Below, in pieces: positions 11,700 to 59,562 of a stretch of 64,000 bases of DNA. The notes below the pieces were generated by a model that was not told the DNA's origin, made no database searches, and worked only from the letters and a program-made list of their open reading frames with translations. The DNA is taken from the NCBI RefSeq assembly GCF_963921235.1, contig NC_086108.1, positions 50,904,001-50,968,000 of the forward strand, read 5' to 3'. Position numbers and translations under genes: made by a program. Position 1 is the first letter of the stretch, and the number at the start of each line of letters is the position of its first letter. The DNA is from Mobula hypostoma. Its lineage: Eukaryota.

Positions 11700-13620
11700 T
11701 CACGTTGATGGGAGTATGAGTATACTTCAGACTCACAAATGCCTCTGGGACGTGGATGAATGGAAATGCAGAAAGATTAGGGAAAATGCAAAAACATGGC
11801 TATTGTAGTGAGTGACTTCAGCATCTCTAATATAGACTCAGACCACATTTCAAGAGGTTTAGATGCAGCAGAACTTGTTAGGTGCATCCAGGAATGTTTT
11901 TAAATCAATATGTAGTGGAGGAGCCATATTGGACTTGCTGTTGGGAAATTAACCTGGCCAAGGTGACTTGCTTTCAGTTTGAGAAAAGAGAACAGTGACC
12001 ATAACTCCTTTAAATGTGAGTAAGAACATTGTGGAAGAATATGAAATTGGAACAGGAGAAATTTGGAAACAGGTTTATTATCACTGTCTTATATATAAAG
12101 TTGTTGTTTTGCATCAGTACTATAGTGCAAAGACATGAATTTAGCCTCAGTTACAAAATGAATACCAAAGAAAGAAGAAATGAGTAGGGTTCATGGGCTT
12201 GTCAGAAATTTGATAGCAGAGGTGAAGCCGCTGTTTCTGAATCATTGAGTATGGGTCTTTGAGCTGCTGTAGCTCCTCCCTGTTAGTAGTAACAAGGCAT
12301 CTTTCAGATGGTGAGAGCCCTTAGTAATGGATGACATCTTCTTGAGGCATCACTTCTTAAAGATGTCCTCGATGACAGGGAGGTTGTGAGCATGTTGAAG
12401 CTGGCTGTGTCTATGACACTGTGCAGCCTTGCAATCCAGTGCCTTCAATAGCAGTCTGGGAAACAACCAGTTAGAATGTTCTCCACCATAAATCTGGGAA
12501 ACAATCCAGTGCCTTCAATAGCAGTCTGGGAAACAATCGGTTAGAATGTTCTCCACCATAAATCCATAAAAACTTGCAAGTCTTTGACTGCATACCAAAT
12601 CTCCCGAAATTCCTAACAAATTAGTTTTTGGGGAACTTTCTTTATTGTTGAATTGTGTGTTTGGCCCAGGATAGATTCGCTGAGAAGTCCACACCCAGGA
12701 ACTTGAAGATGCTCACCCTTTGCACAACTGACCCCTCAATGAGAACTGGTGTGAGTTCTCTTAATCTCCCCTTTAATGAAGGCCACAATCAATTTCTTAG
12801 TTTTGCTCATGTTAAATAAGAGGTTGTTGTTGTGACACTACTCAACCAGCAAATCTATCTTATTCCTGTATGCCTCCTCACCACCATCTGAGCTCTTACA
12901 ATTGTGTCACCTGCAAATTTATAGATGTCATCTGAACTATGATGAGCCACACAGTCAAGAGAGTAGAGCAGTGTGCTATGCATGCATATTCGAGCTACAC
13001 CTCAGTTGTTAGGAACTAGTGAATTTTATAAAGCTGTTTTTGGGCAAGTCCACATCTGGCATGGAGGGTTTTTAAAGATCAGCTGTACAAAGTACAGGAT
13101 GGATACCTTTCAGGAGGACAAGGATGACAAGAAAAAGAGCCTACATAAGGTTAGGAAGCTAAAAAAAAAAATCAAATGGAGCCCTCGAGGATTATAAAGC
13201 TAGAACTCATGAAGACAAATAGAACAGCTGGTAGGAGGAACATGAAAAGCCCTTGGTAAGTAGGGTTGAAGAAGACCCCAAGGTATTCTATGCATACATC
13301 AAAGGTAAAAGCTTAACTAGCAAGGGGTTTGGACTATTGAAGATTAAAGGAGGGAACATGTGCTTGGAGGCAGAGATCCTAAATAAGTAATTTGCATCAG
13401 TATTTACCAAGGAGAAGGATATGGAGGAAAATGAGATGAGTATGGAGCATGGTTAAGTTTGGTTAAGAATACCAAGCAGGATAAGTCTCCAGGGCCTTTT
13501 GGGATATACTCCAAGTTATTCAAAACAGCAAGAAATTAGATTGTTAGGGCCTTGACTAAGATCATTCTGCTTTCTTTAGCTACAAGTGAGGCCCTGATGA
13601 GCTAGTGAAGGAAGAAAGGA
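11700..13620. mobile_element. Degenerate CR1 remnant (+) interrupted by a Rex1-type fragment (-, about 12070-12990)
   Basis: CR1 endonuclease-region remnants resembling 29100-30170. The inner fragment is homologous to 41820-42660 and starts with acaggtttattatcactg. Confidence 0.6.
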
Positions 13621-13869: not shown

Positions 13870-14485
13870 ACTCATTGTTTCAGGCAGCATCTGTGGGGAG
13901 GAAAAGGCCTGTTCACATTTCAGAACAAAGATGTTCTGATGGATCTTCCACCTGCAAGGTTACTGTTTCTCTTTCCAGCTTTGCTGCCTGACTTGCTAAG
14001 TGTTTTCAGCATTTTTGATTTTTACTCATCTCTCTAGTTTAAAAAAAAATCATTCACTCAATATTTTCCATTTTTTGTTGATCACAGGGAATACGGCAAA
14101 GGTCCTGTTTATACAAATAAGTGGCTTGCTGCCATGTCAGGGAATATGAATAATGAACTGCACACTGTGGGACCGTGTAGACTTCCCTATTTTGAATTAT
14201 TCCAGTGCATTAAAGTATATAAAATGATTAATGGTTGTGGCAATCAATTACCGGGGGCCTGTAGAGCATAAACTCACCCAGAAAATAATGCTATACGTTC
14301 TGTCCAAGTGTTAAAGCATGCAAGTAATGATAGTTCCTTTTTTTAAGCAACACATGCAAAATTCATCAATCCTGAAGTGTTTCAGCCTGAAGCACTGACT
14401 ATTTATTCCCCTCTGTAGATGCTGCCTGACTTGTTGAGTTACTCCAGCATTTTATGTTTTGCTCCAGATTTCCAGCATCTGTTCA
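13870..14485. mobile_element. Two old degenerate PLE terminal-repeat remnants (about 13870-14015 and 14375-14485)
   Basis: gatgctgcctgacttg.tgagt...ccagcat motif, similar to the PLE tail at 36090-36165. Confidence 0.5.
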
Positions 14486-19365: not shown

Positions 19366-20103
19366 AAACCCATGTAATCTCTTGTGCTTACTTTAACCTG
19401 GTATAACAAACCTTCCATTCAAGGATTCAACCAAAGCAACAAAGCACTCTTCCTTTAGAAGTATATCCTTCAATGAATAAGATCAAGCCTGTATACAATA
19501 TTCCAATGTTGTTTCATCAAGCAGGAACACATTTAGTCTTTACTCTTGCAGTGTAATCCTTTCACCATAGAGGCCTATATGCAGTTTGCTTCCTAATTGC
19601 TCACTTCATCTCAGTTAATTTTAAGTAATTCATAGAAAGGGCTCCTGGGAACACAAAACATCTTACACCTCTCACCATTTTAAAAACTACAATCAGGAAA
19701 GAAGTTAAGAAAATAAAGCACAATAATATTTTTTAAAGAATAAATAAATATATTATACAAATAAAGGTAAATCTTTAAAAGAGTAAACAACAATGTACCA
19801 AGAAAATGCCACAAACAAGAAATCAGATTATTTGTCACTGTGGATGCTTCAGTGAATTAAATAGTCTTGAATCAAAAAAGGAAAATAAGCATTTTTGTAT
19901 TAAAGACAAGGCAGATACTGTACAAACAAAAATCCAGGAAATAATTTGAAATTCAAGAATGAGCAAGTCAGCACTAAAGCAATTAGACTTTTATTCCTGA
20001 ATGATACTGATGCCTTAGGCAATTCACAATGAGTTACATCTTCCCATGATAAATTAACATTCTTTTGCAAAGCTTTTGTTTTCTTTTTATCCTTCTGAAA
20101 CAG

Positions 20104-20631
20104 ATGAGTGTACAAGAATATGAAATGATTCAAGATGAGGAAGATGAAGCTTGCCTTCGTAGGTACCGCAAGCAATGCATGCAAGAGATGCACCAGCAGC
20201 TAAGCTTTGGCCCCCAGTTTGGAATGCTTTATGAGCTTGAAAGTGGGGAGCAATTCTTGGAAGTGATTGAAAAGGAATTGAAAAAAACTACAGTGATGGT
20301 GAATGTTTACGAGGACAGAGTGAAGGGATGCGAGTCTTTGATTAACTGTTTAACATGCCTTGCTTTGGAATATCCTTTGGTTAAGTTCTGTAAAATAAAG
20401 GCCTCTAACACTGGAACTAGTAACCGCTTCTCTGATAATATTCTACCAGCACTATTGGTGTACAAGGCAGGAGAACTAATTGGCAACTTCCTTCACATTA
20501 CCGAGCAGCTGGGTGAAGAATTTTTTGCGGTGGATGTTGAAACTTTCCTCAATGAATATGGCCTTTTGCCAGAAAGAGAATTCACTGCTTGTGAAAATGC
20601 TAGTGATGGCAGTGATGTAGATATTGAATGA
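20104..20631 (+). CDS. PDC: Phosducin, last coding exon, thioredoxin-like domain ([26 protein letters not shown]...[16 protein letters not shown]...SDVDIE*)
   Basis: Pyrimidine-rich acceptor ending aacag at 20103. The ORF is clearly phosducin family. Spliced product is 77+175 = 252 aa. Confidence 0.96.
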
Positions 20632-28900: not shown

Positions 28901-31594
28901 AAATTCCAGGGTTCCGATGTGATAGAGGCAGAGGAATGAAAGGTGGAGGGGTAGCATTGCTTGTCAGGGAAAATGTTACAGCAGTGCTCAGGCAGGACAG
29001 ATTAGAGGGCTTGTCTACTGAGTCCTTATGGGTGGAGCTGAGAAACAGGGAAGGTATGGCCACATTAGTGGGATCATATTATAGACCACCCAATAGTCAG
29101 CGAGAATCTGCAGAGAAACTGCAGGAAACATAAAGTTGTGGTGGTAGGGGATTTTAATTTTCCACATATTGATTGGGACTCCCATACTGTTAGGGGTCTA
29201 GATGGGTTAGAGTTTGTAAAATGTGTTCAGGAGAGTTTTCTAAATCAATATATAGAGGTACCAACTAGAGGGGATGCAGTATTAGATCTCTTATTAGGAA
29301 ACGAGTTAGGACAAGTGACGGAAGTGTGTGTAGGGGAGCACTTTGGTTCCAGTGATCATAACACCATTAGTTTCAACTTGATCATGGATAAAGACAGATC
29401 TGGTCCTAGGGTTGAGGTTCTAAACTGGAAGAAGGCCAAATTTGAAGAAATGAGAAAGGATCTAAAAAGTGTGCATTGGGATAGGTTGTTCTCTGGCAAG
29501 GATGTGATCGGTAAGTGGGAAGCCTTCAAAGGAGAAATTTTGAGAGTGCAGAGCTTGTATGTTCCTGTCAGGATTAAAGGCAAAGTGAATAGGAATAAGG
29601 AACCTTGGATCTCAAGGGATATTGCAACACTGATAAAGAAAAGAGAGTTGTATGACATGTATAGGAAACAGGGAGTAAATAAGGTGCTTGAGGAGTATAA
29701 GAAGTGCAAGAAAATACTTAAGAAGGAAATCAGGAGGGCTAAAAGAAGACGTGAGGTTGCCTTGGCAGTCAAAGTGAAGGATAATCCAAAAAGCTTTTAC
29801 AGGTATATTAAAAGGATTGTAAGGGATAAAATTGGTCCTCTTGAAGATCAGAGTGGTCAGCTATGTGTGGAACCAAAAGAAATGGGGGAGATCTTAAATG
29901 GGTTTTTTTGTGTCTGTATTTACTAAGGAAACTGGCATGAAATCTATGGAATTAAGGGAAACAAGTAGTGAGATCATGGAAACTGTACAGATTGAAGAGG
30001 AGGTGGTGCTTACTATCTTGAGGCAAATTAAAGCGGATAAATCCCCAGGACCTGACAGGGTATTCCCTCGGACCTTGAAGGAGACTAATGTTGAAATTGC
30101 AGGGGTTCTGGCAGATATATTTAAAATGTCGGTGTCTACGGGTGAGGTGCCGGAGGATTGGAGAATGGTTCATGTTGTTCCGTTGTTTAAAAAAGGATCG
30201 AAAAATAATCCGGAAAATTACAGGCCAGTAAGTTTGATGTCGGTAGTGGGTAAGTTATTGGAGGGAGTACTAAGAGAATCTACAAGCATTTGGATAGACA
30301 GGGACTTATTAGGGAGAGTCAACATGGCTTTGTGTGTGGTAGGTCATGTTTGACCAATCTATTGGAGTTTATCGAGGAGGTTACCAGAAAAGTGGATGAA
30401 GGGAAGGCAGTGGATGTTGTCTACATGGACTTCAGTAAGGCCTTTGACAAGGTCCCGCATGGGAGGTTAGTCAGGAAAATTCAGTTGCTAGGTATACATG
30501 GAAAGGTAGTAAATTGGATTAGACATTGGCTCAATGGAAGAAGCCAAAGAGTAGAGAACTGCTTCTCAGAGTGGAGGCCTGTGACTAGTGGTGTGCCACA
30601 GGGATCAGTGCTGGGTCCATTGTTATTTGTCATCTATATCAATGATCTGGATGATAATGTGGTAAATTGGATCAGCAAATTTGCTGATGGTACAAAGATT
30701 GGAGGTGTAGTGGACAGTGAGGAAGGATTTCAAAGCTTGCAGAGGGATTTGGACCAGCTGGAAAAATGGGCTGAAAAATGGCAGATGGAGTTTAATACAG
30801 ACAAGTGTGAGGTATTGCACTTTGGAAGGACAAACCAAGGTAGAACATACAGGGTAAATGGTAAGGCACTGAGGAGTGCAGTAGAACAGAGGGATCTGGG
30901 AATACAGATACAAAATTCCCTAAAAGTCGCATCACAGGTAGATAGGATCGTAGAGAGCTTTTGGTACATTGGCCTTTATTAATCAGAGTATTAAGAGCTG
31001 GAATGTTATGATGAGGTTGTATAAGGCATTGGTGAGGCCAAATCTGGAGTATTGTGTTCAGTTTTGGTCACCAAATTACAGGAAGAATACAAATAAGGTT
31101 GAAAGAGTGCAGAGAAGGTTTACAAGGATGTTGCCGGGACTTGAGAAACTCAGTTACAGAGAAAGGTTGAATAGGTTAGGACTTTATTCCCTGAAGCGTA
31201 GAAGAATGAGGGGAGATTTGATAGAGGTATATGAAATTATGATGGGTATAGATAGAGTGAATGCAAGCAGGCTTTTTCCACTGAGGCAAGGGGAGATAAA
31301 AACTAGAGGACATGGGTTAAGGGTGAAGGGGGAAAAGTTTAAAGGGAACATTAGGGGGGGCTTCTTCACACAGAGAGTGGTGGGAGTGTGGAATGAGCTG
31401 CCAAATGAGGTGGTAAATGCGAGTTCTTTTTTAATATTTAAGAATAAATTGGACAGATACATGGATGGGAGGTGTATGGAGGGATATGGTCCGTGTGCAG
31501 GTCAGTGGGACTGGGCAGAAAATGATTCGGCACAGCCAAGAAGCGCCAAAAGGCCTGTTTCTGTGCTGTAGTTTTTCTATGGTTCTATTTCTAT
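28901..31594 (+). mobile_element. Young 5'-truncated CR1 LINE, ORF2 (APE endonuclease C-part + RT) broken by frameshifts
   Basis: Overlapping ORFs with [42 protein letters not shown] and KFADGTK; ttctat-repeat tail. Confidence 0.95.
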
Positions 31595-33290: not shown

Positions 33291-36177
33291 ACACACATCA
33301 AAGTTGCTGGTGAACACAGCAGGCCAGGCAGCATCTCTAGGAAGAGGTGCAGTCGACGTTTTGGGCCGAGACCCTTCGGCAGGACTAACTGAAAGAAGAG
33401 CTAGTAAGAGATTTGAAAGTGGGAGGGGGAGGGGGAGAACCAAAACGATAGGAGAAGACAGGAGGGAGAGGGATGGAGCCAAGAGATGGACAGGTGATTG
33501 GCAAAAGGGATATGAGAGGATCAAGGGACAGGAGGCCTAGGGAGAAAGAAAAGGGGGAGGGGGGGAAAACCCAGAGGATGGGCAAGGGGTATAGTGAGAG
33601 GGACAGAGGGAGAAAAAGGAGAGAGAGAAAAAGAATGTGTGTATATAAATAAGTAACAGATGGGATAGGAGGGGCATTAGCGAAAGTTTGAGAAGTCAAT
33701 GTTCATGCCATCAGGTTGGAGGCTACCCAGACGGAATATAAGGTGTTGTTCCTCCAACCTGAGTGTGGCTTCATCTTTACAGTAGAGGAGGCCGTGGATA
33801 GTCATAGTCATACTTTATTGATCCCGGGGGAAATTGGTTTTCGTTACAGTTGCACCATAAATAATAAATAGTAATAAAACCATAAATAGTTAAATAGTAA
33901 TATGTAAATTATAGCAGGAAATAAGTCCAGGACCAGCCTATTGGCTCAGGGTGTCTGAGCCTCCAAGGGAGGAGTTGTAAAGTTTGATGGCCACAGGCAG
34001 GAATGACTTCCTATGACGCTCTGGTGTTGCATCTCGGTGGAATGAGTCTCTGGCTGAATGTACTCCTGTGCCCAACCAGTCCATTATGTAGTGGATGGGA
34101 GACATTGTCCAAGATGGCATGCAACTTCGACAGCATCCTCTTTTCAGACACCACCGTCAGAGAGTCCAGTTCCATCCCCTCAACACCACTGGCCTTACGA
34201 ATGAGTTTGTTGATTCTGTTGGTGTCTGCTACCCTCAGCCTGCTGCCCCAGCACACAACAGCAAACATGATAGCACTGGCCACCACAGACTCGTAGAACA
34301 TCCTCAGCATTGTCCAGTAGATGTTAAAGGACCTCAGTCTCCTCAGGAAATAGAGACAGCTCTGACCCTTCTTGTAGACAGCCTCAGTGTTCTTTGACCA
34401 GTCCAGTTTATTGTCAATTCGTATCCCCAGGTATTTGTAATCCTCCACCATGTCCACCCTGAGCCCCTGGATGGAAACAGGGGTCACCGGTACCTTAGCT
34501 CTCCTCAGGTCTACCACCAGCTCCTTAGTCTTTTTCACATTAAGCTGCAGATAATTCTGCTCACACCATGTGACAAAGTTTCCTATCGTAGTCCTGTACT
34601 CAGCCTCATCTCCCTTGCTGATGCATCCAACTATGGCAGAGTCATCAGAAAACTTCTGAAGATGACAAGACTCTGTGCAGTAGTTGAAGTCCGAGGTGTA
34701 AATGGTGAAAAGAAAGGGAGACAACACAGTCCCCTGTGGAGCCCCAGTGCTGCTGATCACTCTGTCGGACACACAGTGTTGCAAGCACAAGTACTGTGGT
34801 CTGCCAGTCAGGTAATCAATAATCCATGACACCAGGAAAGCATCCACCTGCATCGCTGTCAGCTTCTCTCCCAGCACAGCAGGGCGGATGGTGTTGAACG
34901 CACTGGAGAAGTCAAAAAACATGACCCTCACAGTGTTCGCTGGCTTGTCCAGGTGGGCGTAGACACGGTTCAGCAGGTAGACGATGGCATCCTCAACTCC
35001 TAGTCGGGGCTGGTAAGCGAACTGGAGAGGATCTAAGTGCAGCCTGACCATAGGCCGGAGCAGCTCCAGAACAAGTCTCTCCAGGGTCTTCATGATGTGG
35101 GAGGTCAATGCCACCGGTCTGTAGTCATTGAGGCCGCTGGGGCGCGGCGTCTTCGGCACAGGGACAAGGCAGGACATATCAGAATGGGAATGGGACGTGC
35201 AATTAAAATGTGTGGCCACTGGGAGATCCTGCTTTCTCTGGTGGACAGAGCGTAGGCGTTCAGCGAAACGATCTCCCAGTCTGCGTCGGGTCTCGCCAAT
35301 ATATAGAAGGCCACATCGGGAGCACTGGACGCAGTATATCACCCCAGCTGACTCACAGGTGAAGTGTCGCCTCACCTGGAAGGACTGTCTGGGGCCCTGA
35401 ATGGTGGTAAGGGAGGAAGTGTAAGGGCATGTGTAGCACTTGTTCCGCTTACAAGGGAAAGTGCCAGGAGGGAGATGGGTGGGGAGGGATGGGGATGGGG
35501 GCGAATGGACAAGGGAGTTGCGTAGGGAGCGATCCCTGCGGAAAGCGGGGGGGGGGGAGGGAAAGATGTGCTTAGTGGTGGGATCCTGTTGGAGGTAGCA
35601 GAAGTTACGGAGAATAATATGTTGGACCCGGAGGCTGGCCTCCTCTACTGTAAAGATGAAGCCACACTCAGGTTGGAGGAACAACACCTTATATTCCGTC
35701 TGGGTAGCCTCCAACCTGATGGCATGAACATTGACTTCTCAAACTTCCGCTAATGCCCCAACTCCCCATCGTATCCCATCCGTTATTTATATATACACAC
35801 ATTCTTTTTCTCTCTCTCCTTTTTCTCCCTCTGTCCCTCTCATTATACCCCTTGCCCATCCTCTGGGTTTCCCCCCCTCCCCCTTTTCTTTCTCCCTAGG
35901 CCTCCTGTCCCATGATCCTCTCATATCCCCTTTGCCAATCAACTGTCCAGCTCTTGGCTCCATCCCTCCCCCTCCTGTCTTCTCCTATCATTTTGGATCT
36001 CCCCCTCCTCCTCCCACTTTCTTACTAGCTCTTCTTTCAGTTAGCCCTGACGAAGGGTCTCGGCCCAAAACATCGACTGTACCTCTTCCTAGAGATGCTG
36101 CCTGGCCTGCTGCGTTCACCAGCAACTTTGATGTTTGTTGCTTGAATTTCCAGCATCTGCAGATTTCCTCGTATTTG
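33291..36177 (-). mobile_element. 5'-truncated Penelope-like element (GIY-YIG endonuclease region) with ~500-bp inverted terminal repeats
   Basis: 13-bp TSD TGATGGTCAATTA (33278-33290, 36178-36190). Arms 33291-33793 and about 35637-36140 are inverted copies. CKRNKCYTC and VIYCVQCSRCGLLYIGET..R motifs; C-terminus IHGLLYCKDEATLRLEEQHLIFRLGSLQPDGMNIDFSNFR*. Confidence 0.92.
33798..35173 (-). mobile_element. Young 5'-truncated Rex1/Babar LINE (RT domain) nested in the PLE endonuclease
   Basis: LVPVPK..LNDYRPVALTS, QFAYQP, FFDFSSAFNTI, GAPQGTVLSP and KFSDD motifs. 3' end aataaagtat(gactat)2. One frameshift near 34025. Confidence 0.92.
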
Positions 36178-52651: not shown

Positions 52652-53785
52652 AAGGAGGTTAGTTAGGAAAATTCAGTCGCTAGGTATACATGGAGAGGTG
52701 GTAAATTGGATCAGACATTGGCTCAATGGAAGAAGCCGAAGAGTGGTAGTAGAGAATATTGCTTCTCTGAGTGGAGGCCTGTGACAAGTGGTGTGCCACA
52801 GGGATCAGTGCTGGGTCCATTGTTATTTGTCATCTATATCAATGATCTGGATGATAATGTGGTAAATTGGATCAGCAAATTTGCTGATGATACAAAGATT
52901 GGAGGTGTAGTAGACAGTGAGGAAGGTTTTCAGAGCCTGCAGAGGGACTTGGACCAGCTGGAAAAATGAGCTGAAAAATGGCAAATGGAGTTTAATACAG
53001 ACAAGTGTGACGTATTGCACGTTGGAAGGACAAACCAAGGTAGAACATACAGGGTTAATGGTAAGGCACTGAGGAGTGCAGTAGAACAGAGGGATCTGGG
53101 AATACAGATACAAAATTCCCTAAAAGTGGATAGGGTCGTAAAGAGAGCTTTTGGTACATTGGCCTTTATTAATCAAAGTATTGAGTATAAGAGCTGGAAT
53201 GTTATGATGAGGTTGTATAAGGCATTGGTGAGGCCGAATCTGGAGTATTGTGTTCAGTTTTGGTCACCAAATTACAGGAAGGATATAAATAAGGTTGAAA
53301 GAGTGCAGAGAAGGTTTACAAGGATGTTGCCAGGACTTGAGAAACTCAGTTACAGAGAAAGGTTGAATAGGTTAGGACTTTATTCCCTGGAGCGTAGAAG
53401 AATGAGGGGTGATTTGATAGAGGTATATAAAATTATGATGGGTATAGATAGAGTGAATGCAAGCAGGCTTTTTCCACTGAGGCAAGGGGAGAAAAAAAAA
53501 CAGAGGACATGGGTTAAGGGTGAGGGGGGAAAGGTTTAAAGGGAACATTAGGGGGGGGCTTCTTCACACAGAGAGTGGTGGGAGTATGGAATGAGCTGCC
53601 AGATGAGGTGGTAAATGCAGGTTCTTTTTTAACATTTAAGAATAAATTGGACAGATACATGGATGGGAGGTGTATGGAGGGATATGGTCCGTGTGCAGGT
53701 CAGTGGGACTAGGCAGAAAATGGTTCGGCACAGCCAAGAAGGGCCAAAAGGCCTGTTTCTGTGCTGTAGTTTCTATGGTTCTACG
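52652..53785 (+). mobile_element. Young 5'-truncated CR1, same subfamily as 28901-31594
   Basis: Near-identical to about 30461-31588; KFADDTK intact; ttctatggttcta tail. Confidence 0.95.
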
Positions 53786-56377: not shown

Positions 56378-56978
56378 CATTTAAAAAAAGAGACTCTTGA
56401 TTGGTCAGAGGATTAAGATTTATGAGGAGAAGGTAAGTAAATGAGGTTGAGGAAAAAGAAGTCACGCTTCACTGAACTGCAAAACAGACTTGATAGGCTG
56501 AATAGCCTAATTCTGCTTTTATATAAAATGCTGAACACTGCAGCACAGAAATGGGCTCTTCAGCCCACGATACAATGTCAAGCTAATTAAATAAGTAATT
56601 AAATGTCTAACTAAACTACTCCCTTCTACCTACATAATATCCAAATCCCTAAGTACATTACAGCTGCACATCTCTGAGCTGCTTAAGCACTTCTACTGCA
56701 TTTCAACCTAACTAGAATAGTCAGCTGGTATCTTTTTCCCAACTAGAATAGTCAGCTAGTATCTTTTTCCCAGGATTGAAATGTGTCATATCAGAGGACA
56801 TGTATTTAAGGTGATAGGCGTAAGCTCAAAGGACAGAAAATGGTGGGTGTTTGGAATCCACTGCTCAGGAGTGGTTGTGCAGCCAAATACTGTATTGAGC
56901 AACCTAATTGTTGTGCATCATGCAACCCAAACACACAGAAAGTGATGATGCACAATTTTAAATGCAGTTGTCGGCATT

Positions 56979-57071
56979 AGTCCTGACGAAGGGTCTCGGC
57001 CTGAAACGTCAACTGCACCTCTTCCTAGAGATGCTGCCTGGCCTGCTGCGTTCACCAGCAACTTTTATGTG
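56979..57071 (+). mobile_element. 93-bp PLE-derived insert beginning with a minimal hammerhead motif
   Basis: 10-bp TSD TGTCGGCATT (56969-56978, 57072-57081); matches the PLE arm at about 36043-36137. Confidence 0.88.
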
Positions 57072-59286
57072 TGTCGGCATTTAAGTGTACCCTTATTTAA
57101 TCACTGATCTTCACCCTACCACAGAATCTTTCTCTTCTTCCCTCTCTTCTTTCTCAAAATTTGTTAACTTTCATTGTTTCTATCTCTGATGGAAGGCCTT
57201 CAACCCAAAATGTTGCTTATTTTGCTCACAAAGGATTTTGTTTGATCTACATTTGTTTTAATTTATATTTTCAACATTTACAATATTTTTCTTAAGTATA
57301 GGTACCTCTTATTAGTTAAATACACAAACTATCACTACTGTGACAGTTCCATATGAATGTGTTGACAAACTTATACAGCTTGACTGAGAAATTAGCTTAA
57401 GTGGTGTAGCTTAATTCAATGTAATGCAATTGAATGCACATTTTTCTGCCGTGAAACTACTTCCTGATCATTTCTTACCAGTTTGGATCTTCTGGCATTG
57501 GTTATGCATCTATATCATACCTAATTTCTAGATTGCTACCTGTGCCACATGACAGTAAGGGTAGAAACAGGATGATTTGGCAGATAAAAGCATGGCCAAG
57601 AAGCTATGCAAGGGGCAGGGCTTCAGGTTCTTGGATCATTAGATTCTCTTCTGGGGCAGGCATGATCTATACAAAAGCAATGGAGGGTGAACAGCTTTAA
57701 GTTCCTCAGCATAAACATCACCGAGGATCTCACGTGGTCTGCACATACCACTGTGTGGTGAAAATGACACAACAGCGCCTTTTCACCTCAGATGGTTAAG
57801 GATATTTGATGTGGGTCCTAATCCTAAGAACTTTCTCCTCTAATATATTTTTATTGAAGGAATGACACAATACAGAATACATAATGGATTACATTAACCT
57901 CCATTTTGCTTTTGTATCTTACCCCTAAACAAACCTCCCCTCACCCGCCCTCCCCGAACATACCATGGCAGCTAATGTATTTACAATACAACCATTCACA
58001 AATACAAGTAGGGACATTTCACAGCCATATCCCCACACTACTTCAAGACGAAGGCCCACACACATCCACAACGTGTCAGATAGTCCAAAGTACACTCATA
58101 CTACAGTTCATCAACCATCCTGTGAGGTAAACCATATGCGTGTTAAAAGGGAGGCAACTTCCCAAGTACAATCAAATGCCCTCAACTAGTAAGTAATTCC
58201 TTAAGACTCCCAAAACATGACAAGAAAGGTCCCCCTTTCCAGTACAACTTTTCACAGACCCCCTCAAAGTGAATTTAATCTTTTCTAATTTCAGAAAAAA
58301 ACATTACGTCCTCTAACCAAGCAGCAGCAGATGGGGGAGTGGCAGATTTCCAGACCAGCAAGATTCTCCTACGGGCCAATAGCGATGTAAATGCAATGAT
58401 ATCCGACTGGCTTGCATTTAAACCCAAAACATCATCTGCCACACCAAATATAGCTATAAGCGGGCAAAGTCTCAGTGTCACCCCCAAAACCTCACTGATA
58501 ATTTTAAAAACTAGTGCCCAATAGCCATCAAGCTGAGGGCAAGACCAAAATGCATGCACTAAACCAGTTGGAGAGAAGGAACACCTATCACAGCCAGCGT
58601 CTGTCCCGGGATATATGTCAGCAAGCCTGGCTTTACTTAAATGTACCCTGTGTAAAACTTTAAATTGTATGAGCCCCAGTCTAGCACATGATGACTAGGA
58701 ACGAATCCTATTCAATGCTTTTGCCCAATATTCCTTAGCCAGATCCATACCAAGGTCATCCTCCCACCTAGTCTTAGTTTTGTTTAGATCTTGAACTCCC
58801 AAAGACATCAGCTGAGAGTATAGTACAGAGATCAGCCCTTTATTATTAAAGTTAAGAGTGAGTTTTTCCCACAACATAGCAGGTGGCAGATCAGGAAAAG
58901 AGGGAAATTTTTCCTTGACAAAGTGGCAAATCTGCAGGTATTTTAAAAAATGATTATGCGGAAGGCCATGCTTACTGCACAGGTTATCAAAACTATCAAA
59001 TATGTTATCAGTGTACAAATCCTTAATACGCATAAGACCGTTCAAACCCCATTGTCTAAAAACTGAATCGAGCGTGGAGGGAAGAAATAGATGGTTTCTA
59101 TGAATGAGACCCAAAACTGAAGCTGGTGTGAATTTATAGTGGCAGCGAAATTGATTAAAAATTTTGAGGGTGGAAAGCACGACCGGGTTAGATGTGAATT
59201 GAGAGGATTTCAATGGTAAGGAAGAATACACTAAAGCTGAGAAACAAGGAGTGGCAAGACCGTGTCTCAAGCAGGCACCAGTTTGT

Positions 59287-59320
59287 GTCCTGACGAAGGG
59301 TCTCGGCCTGAAACGTCGAC
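59287..59320 (+). ncRNA. Minimal type I hammerhead ribozyme motif (PLE-type)
   Basis: GTC-CTGACGA-AGG(GTCTCGG)CCT-GAAA-CG-TC^GAC. Complete core CUGANGA/GAAA/GUC, stem I GUC/GAC, stem II AGG/CCU, loopless palindromic stem III (ACGU). Predicted cleavage after 59317. Confidence 0.75.
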
Positions 59321-59417
59321 TGCACCTCTTCCTAGATGCTGCCTGGCCTGCTGCGTTCACCAGCAACTTTTATGTGTGTTGCTTGAATTTCCAGCATCTG
59401 CAGAATTCCTGTTGTTT
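59287..59417 (+). mobile_element. 131-bp PLE-derived insert nested in L1 ORF2
   Basis: TSD ACCAGTTT(G/A)T (59277-59286, 59418-59427); matches the PLE arm at about 36044-36177. Confidence 0.88.
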
Positions 59418-59562
59418 ACCAGTTTATATCTGGCCGGTGGAGCCAAAATAATACCTTTTGAATGTTCGATGCCCAGTAATGATGAATAAAGCTAGGAAGG
59501 CCCATTCCACCTACGTCACAACCTCTATGGAGAGTGCGCTTATTAACCCTTGGGAACTTATT

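Follow-up and report, generated by a model that had tools for sequence, protein, structure and literature searches.

How the insertion of a Penelope-like element (PLE) is completed, and what part its hammerhead plays, are open questions: the 3′ ends of insertions have been explained, while the 5′ ends are assumed to be random. A 93-bp insert (mini A) in a stretch of 64 000 nt from Mobula hypostoma (the window) raises the question of whether a 5′ end may be defined as well. An earlier note on this DNA had claimed that mini A and a second insert (mini B) start almost together at the 5′ strand of hammerhead stem I, and that their ends are defined at both sides rather than randomly truncated.

Two short inserts and their parent element

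The two inserts and their flanks are as follows.

56969..56978, no strand: left target-site duplication of mini A, 10 bp
56979..57071, plus strand: mini A, which by identity to the PLE arms is a solo copy of the terminal repeat's 3′ end with the short end point
57072..57081, no strand: right target-site duplication of mini A
59285..59417, plus strand: mini B, 133 bp, long-tail type with a 2-nt internal deletion, recognized by its duplication and by identity to the arms

Mini A is 93 bp long, has AGTCCTGACGA as its first letters and lies between exact copies of a 10-bp repeat; the coordinates and the perfect repeats reported earlier were verified. Among random pairs of 23-nt windows, 8 nt or more were shared in 0.56% of trials. 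The insert is 92–94% identical to the PLE arms and 97% identical to mini B. Its junctions are ambiguous by microhomology, since the duplication closes with the same 2 nt (TT) that lie upstream in the element and opens with the same 3 nt that continue the element; the true limits are 56977–79 to 57071–74.

The 8-bp duplication of mini B (59277–84 / 59418–25) differs from that of mini A, and its host site is a minus-strand remnant of an L1-like LINE. By this duplication mini B starts at 59285, with 2 nt preceding GTCC. The two inserts are therefore independent, as the earlier note had it, while the distance of ∼1 nt between their starts becomes a spread of ∼2 nt. The target of mini B (59277–59286) also contains the CAGTT that the element has immediately 5′ of helix I, 2 bases out of register. 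We consider it very probable that both minis are short target-primed reverse transcripts of a very abundant Neptune/Nematis-type ray PLE.

A large insertion of this PLE lies elsewhere in the window.

33291..36177, no strand: large PLE insertion whose arms are inverted, the 3′ ends facing outward on both sides, in a 13-bp duplication (33278–90 / 36178–90)
33291..33793, minus strand: left arm, with the ORF end, the 3′ UTR, a hammerhead from 33386 and the short 3′ end
33683..33811, minus strand: C-terminal end of the PLE ORF, separated from the remainder by a LINE insertion
33813..35165, minus strand: LINE fragment within the PLE endonuclease, RVT_1 plus ALKBH8_N
35166..35639, minus strand: PLE ORF fragment, C-x4-C-xx-C linker and GIY-YIG endonuclease
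35637..36177, plus strand: right (inverted) arm, 5′-truncated within the endonuclease coding region, with a hammerhead from 36043 and the long 3′ end

The LINE fragment at 33813–35165 is presumably Rex1-like; a search for a duplication of at least 6 nt at its ends found none, and in contigs of run X1 the PLE family sequence runs across the insertion point (row 33805). The translation of the PLE ORF contains GVIYCVQCSRCGLLYIG, a C-terminal GIY-YIG with two cysteines inside the motif, and the linker before the endonuclease contains the CX2-5CxxC motif, here C-x4-C-xx-C, that marks Neptune/Nematis. A Pfam search of the window's own endonuclease fragment gave no match; relatives at 56–89% identity match Pfam GIY-YIG with scores just under the cut-off. 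The closest of the 15 protein matches were Mobula and Hypanus gene models (82–89% identity), which points to a ray-like cartilaginous fish as the host; P0003 was rejected as an unrelated chance match. The RT is missing from the window copy and lies upstream in ray and shark relatives (RVT_1 with E = 0.008 in one). Judged by its linker and endonuclease, the parent is an endonuclease-bearing PLE, probably of the Neptune/Nematis type. At least 60% of the sampled words of the arm were found in public runs of five organisms.

Other features of the window include an exon-like frame with a strong Pfam Phosducin match (20053–20631, E 9e-85), a LINE 3′ region with an RT-like frame that occurs as two copies of 1.1 kb with 93% identity (30462–31587 and 52654–53783), and near-perfect local tandem duplications of 31 bp (56710–56772) and ∼65–70 bp (12432–12564), the first of which sits 200 bp upstream of mini A.

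The hammerhead motif and the two 3′ end points

The first part of mini A is a candidate ribozyme.

56979..57014, plus strand: minimal type I hammerhead motif, with topology as in the available text of PMC4209133; helix I 5′ strand 56979–82, CUGACGA 56983–89, stem II 56991–93/57000–02, GAAA 57003–06, predicted cut after 57010, helix I 3′ strand 57011–14 with a C.A mismatch

The motif has the CUGANGA and GAAA cores, a UH cut site, helix I and helix II pairing and no loop III. It resembles the min-HHRs of metazoan PLEs (Cervera and De la Pena 2014, PMC4209133), as far as the available text describes them, in being type I with a helix I of 4–5 bp, an extra base before stem II, no loop III and a palindromic 15.2–16.2. 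It differs from the examples given there in that stem II is 3 bp rather than 6–8 bp; also, both minis have G.U for the conserved G10.1–C11.1, and mini A has a broken helix I pair. No Rfam match was observed in the window at the gathering score, nor at E ≤ 10 over 56900–59500, and folding of eight sequences gave no significant structure (z from −1.1 to 0.55). The motif is a min-HHR by sequence, and its designation as a ribozyme is based on motif topology.

The ribozyme cores are intact in both minis and mutated in both arms. The stem I mismatch noted earlier in mini A is real: the core-proximal helix I pair is C.A there and C–G in the three other young copies, a CG>CA change such as CpG decay gives. 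Since this mismatch adjoins the cut, self-cleavage of the mini A copy is doubtful. In the contigs of run X1 the family majority at 33362–33363 is CCCG before AAAC, and the variant that turns the conserved G10.1–C11.1 into a G.U makes up 47% of contig depth at 33363; it could represent CpG decay or a subfamily.

With the count beginning at the A of AGTCC, the 3′ ends fall at 93–96 (mini A), 96–97 (left arm), 134 (mini B) and 135 (right arm), so the four young ends form two groups, 38–42 nt apart. The ends of the minis had been said to match the two end points of the big PLE, and they do, mini A pairing with the left arm at the short end and mini B with the right arm at the long end. The letters quoted for the short end were inexact: the end point of mini A matches that of the left arm, but near it mini A reads TTTTATGTG where the arms have TTGATGTG. 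At the short 3′ end at least 463 contigs of run X1 end loose, with a median of 255 nt of other sequence, and the loose-end consensus tracks the tail for ∼10 nt only.

PLE insertions are known to carry an optional tail extension of 30–40 bp (Craig et al. 2021, PMC8557442), and in the anole PLE two internal RT start sites give this tail, with uncut RNA as the main template (Frangieh et al. 2024, PMC11167929). The two end points, ∼40 nt apart and just downstream of the hammerhead, agree with the tail described in these papers, which comes from two internal RT start sites. The likeness extends to the copying of an uncut ribozyme, an AT-rich target edge, an inverted 5′-truncated partner arm and a variable duplication length; the features of PLE insertion products found here are duplications of 10, 8 and 13 bp, the tail and the inverted truncated partner arm. 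Defined 3′ ends, as claimed earlier, are thus supported and already published. Two differences from the available account of Frangieh et al. (PMC11167929) are that the PLE studied there is Poseidon, while the window element has a Neptune/Nematis linker, and that a preferred 5′ boundary at helix I is absent from it. The 3′ half of the interpretation is already known, and the 5′ half is plausible.

The minis also recall animal non-LTR retrozymes (Cervera 2020, PMC7229834; Li et al. 2026, bioRxiv 10.64898/2026.07.22.740005), which in the text available are short, non-coding, of PLE-repeat origin and dispersed as monomers, with a type I hammerhead. Retrozymes are built of tandem units with a ribozyme in each, whereas the minis are single copies bounded by helix I and by the tail sites; a search for a tandem array at either mini found none, and the tandem organization of retrozymes does not apply. 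Many solo copies of min-HHRs have been ascribed to truncated PLEs (PMC4209133, available text); what differs here is that the end points of solo copies are analysed.

Where the 5′ ends lie

Both young minis (2/2) start within ∼2 nt of helix I; in a post hoc test under five null models, the chance of two 5′ ends within 2 nt is 0.14–1.3%. Older copies in the window were inspected as well.

14368..14485, plus strand: old relic of a sister family, with similarity from about helix I; the sequence upstream is unlike the pyrimidine-rich UTR
13881..14018, no strand: old inverted relic pair; the apparent starts are helix I (13933) in the plus arm and a point within the motif (13926) in the minus arm

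Two of the four older relics appear, by eye, to begin at helix I (14368 and 13933) and the two others inside the motif; the pair at 13881–14018 was read by eye from matches with weak E-values of ∼0.1. No adjacent duplication was found at the old relics. The pair presents head-to-head hammerhead relics of another family, 6 nt apart, with tails outward.

In run X1 at least 343 contigs end loose at 33386, the start base of mini A, ∼23 times the mean row (∼15). Agreement among these loose ends is 0.39, compared with 0.32 for random flanks and 0.55–0.60 for rows of family divergence; their median length is 81, compared with 62–69 in family rows and 255 in the flank row. Their consensus starts purine-rich, like the UTR of a sister family, and by calculation a fixed sequence present at 10% already suffices to imprint a loose-end consensus. 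Sister families are abundant, with rows of at least 454 and at least 405 contigs just after the stop codon. A mixture calculation with assumed distributions gave an estimate of 18–51% true junctions among the loose ends at 33386. The peak is confounded, as sister subfamilies diverge at the same base. Depth has no step at the boundary (7.13M in the boundary bin and 7.21M in the next one upstream, a poor measure according to the tool's own note), so most copies run on upstream. None of the six X1 rows listed is a loose-end row at the ribozyme cut site.

A pattern scan for further copies gave none in viral contigs, none in genome contigs, and none, then seven, in metagenomes; the seven matched over 24–34 nt only and were rejected as chance. 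Raw-read runs X21–X23 yielded 11, 4 and 11 reads, which all fell on stretches of low complexity and were unrelated. In the literature within the scope of our search, most subscription papers and Figure S2 of Frangieh et al. lying outside it, we found no account of 5′ ends that cluster at helix I; the supplement text of that paper (PMC11167929), as far as available, gave no matches, and Figure S2 may show the 5′ ends of genomic copies.

The earlier claim of a defined 5′ end is therefore suggestive, and upheld only in part: two clean minis, two old relics and a contig peak speak for it, while the peak is confounded and most depth continues upstream. The start at the ribozyme edge may be a real preferred boundary. 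The minis would otherwise coincide by chance and ascertainment, with the contig peak lying where sister subfamilies stop matching, and we regard such random 5′ truncation as rather unlikely. There are just two clean cases, picked post hoc, and whole hammerheads catch the eye; the smooth depth, the family-like consensus and the short median of the 33386 row agree with truncation at random, and heavy 5′ truncation is the PLE norm (PMC8557442, available text). What it has to accommodate is the low chance of two ends within 2 nt (0.14–1.3%), the agreement of 0.39 and median of 81 at 33386, which point to some unique flanks, and the two old relics that also begin near helix I. For the present, mini A remains an ordinary truncated PLE copy. 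The copies are so many that the genome could show if a preferred 5′ boundary exists, and whether RNA start, endonuclease or splicing sets it.

What may set the 5′ boundary

Our best guess, held tentatively, is that the 5′ boundary reflects run-off at the 5′ end of the PLE RNA next to helix I. The GIY-YIG endonuclease would nick the target, and RT would start inside the RNA at either of two sites ∼40 nt apart, resulting in short or tailed 3′ ends, as has been shown for the anole PLE and as we infer here. The template RNA would be uncut, since the entire hammerhead is copied. The 5′ end of some PLE RNAs would be at helix I or slightly upstream of it, most simply owing to a start site in the terminal repeat, and RT from the tail site nearest the RNA 5′ end would exhaust the template after ∼93 or 133 nt; the cDNA would then be joined to the target through microhomology over a few bases or through untemplated bases. 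Cleavage by the ribozyme was rejected as the source of the 5′ ends of the minis, the predicted cut being 32 nt downstream of the start.

Run-off is favored because the terminal repeat is where PLE promoters are located (PMC2377424, PMC8557442) and because the length of the PLE product in vitro is determined by where the template stops on its 5′ side (PMC11167929), all according to the available texts. The unmutated left arm has at the boundary both a TT/A site (the slash marks the boundary) and an initiator-like YYANWYY whose +1 is the A of AGTCC; the latter pattern matches 8 of 503 arm positions and is low in information. Against run-off, the CAGTT overlap of mini B with its target hints that the cDNA ran a few bases further, the right arm is truncated elsewhere (35637), the start site of the D. 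virilis PLE is ∼120 nt upstream of helix I (PMC4209133, PMC2377424, available text), and the junction is uncertain by 2 nt. The stronger proposition, that ray PLE transcripts begin exactly at helix I and that internal initiation at 5′-proximal tail sites routinely runs off, we hold to be somewhat doubtful.

The boundary could instead be set at integration, if cDNA were trimmed, or annealed to the nicked end of the target, where the element's own TT/A resembles the target edge of the endonuclease. At the right edges of all three duplications TT precedes an A or a T, to within one base, and CAGTT/AG is the reading of the element at its boundary; TTA occurs at 6 of 503 left-arm positions, 33386 among them. 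TT in mini A and CAGTT in mini B are in common with the upstream sequence, and for the anole enzyme a preference for ATT and cleavage of its own ORF-pLTR junction DNA have been described (PMC11167929, available text). These resemblances come from three target sites in a genome that is 60% AT, mini B carries 2 extra bases, and sister families seem, by the run X1 consensus, to have CC and not TT before AGTCC. A boundary set in this way is in our opinion distinctly unlikely.

The sequence upstream of helix I has a further property.

36021..36047, plus strand: region upstream of helix I, with a pyrimidine tract and two YAG sites, exon starts 36041 and 36045

Six ray gene models, which are predictions available as protein sequences only, contain this frame: three enter it at V-SPDEG, one enters three codons later, one at an internal site, and one starts at a Met inside it. 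Judging from these proteins, ray gene models seem to use the stretch immediately upstream of the ribozyme as a splice acceptor. The sense strand of the PLE repeat is apparently exonised in ray STARD3NL, SIRT3, METTL8 and RNF180 models (P0001, P0002, P0019, P0021, P0022), three of these five entering at one and the same codon shortly before helix I, and cryptic exons may arise recurrently from the repeat.

If a 3′ splice site ended at helix I, the minis could derive from spliced PLE or host–PLE RNAs. The pyrimidine tract with YAG at 36041 and 36045 fits such an origin, the models entering at V-SPDEG (3/6) are consistent with the first acceptor, and 53 residues inserted at one point of the METTL8 model are absent from two orthologues. 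Mini A is readable as starting exactly at 56977, and there is a precedent in the D. virilis PLE, whose intron ends at helix I (PMC4209133, available text). On a spliced template RT should have entered the upstream exon, but there are no extra bases in mini A and two in mini B; also, a GTRAG donor is absent from the available arm, the gene models are protein-level predictions, and the arm has 11 YAG sites. We regard splicing as an improbable source of the minis.

The earlier note had suggested RT stalling at the ribozyme fold or a discrete master RNA, and neither fared well. Stalling on the fold, or on a protein bound to it, would agree with a boundary at the last base of the structure and with the protein-assisted ribozyme of the anole PLE (PMC11167929, available text). 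However, RT moves 3′ to 5′ on RNA, meets the 3′ strand first and would halt downstream of the ribozyme; the minis contain all of it, so the motif was already unwound when the boundary base was reached. With a helix I of 4–5 bp and no stable monomer fold, stalling is very improbable. We give equally little credence to a separate non-autonomous master of fixed length (SINE-like or a retrozyme monomer), despite two letters common to the minis that differ from both arms and the existence of PLE-repeat-derived retrozyme monomers (PMC7229834; Li et al. 2026, available text), since both letters are frequent family variants (47% of depth at 33363; TTTTATG in two of four ray gene models of the subfamily), mini lengths vary with the parent's two start sites, there are no tandem units, and retrozyme units span from cut site to cut site.

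Should ray PLE transcripts indeed begin exactly at helix I and RT routinely run off there, the PLE would produce discrete ribozyme cassettes of 93 and 133 bp, with both ends defined and without a master gene of their own. The internal-initiation model would be extended to the 5′ end, and the RNA start would be mapped from DNA alone. Some of the solo min-HHRs that are so numerous in the genomes of animals would then be explained.
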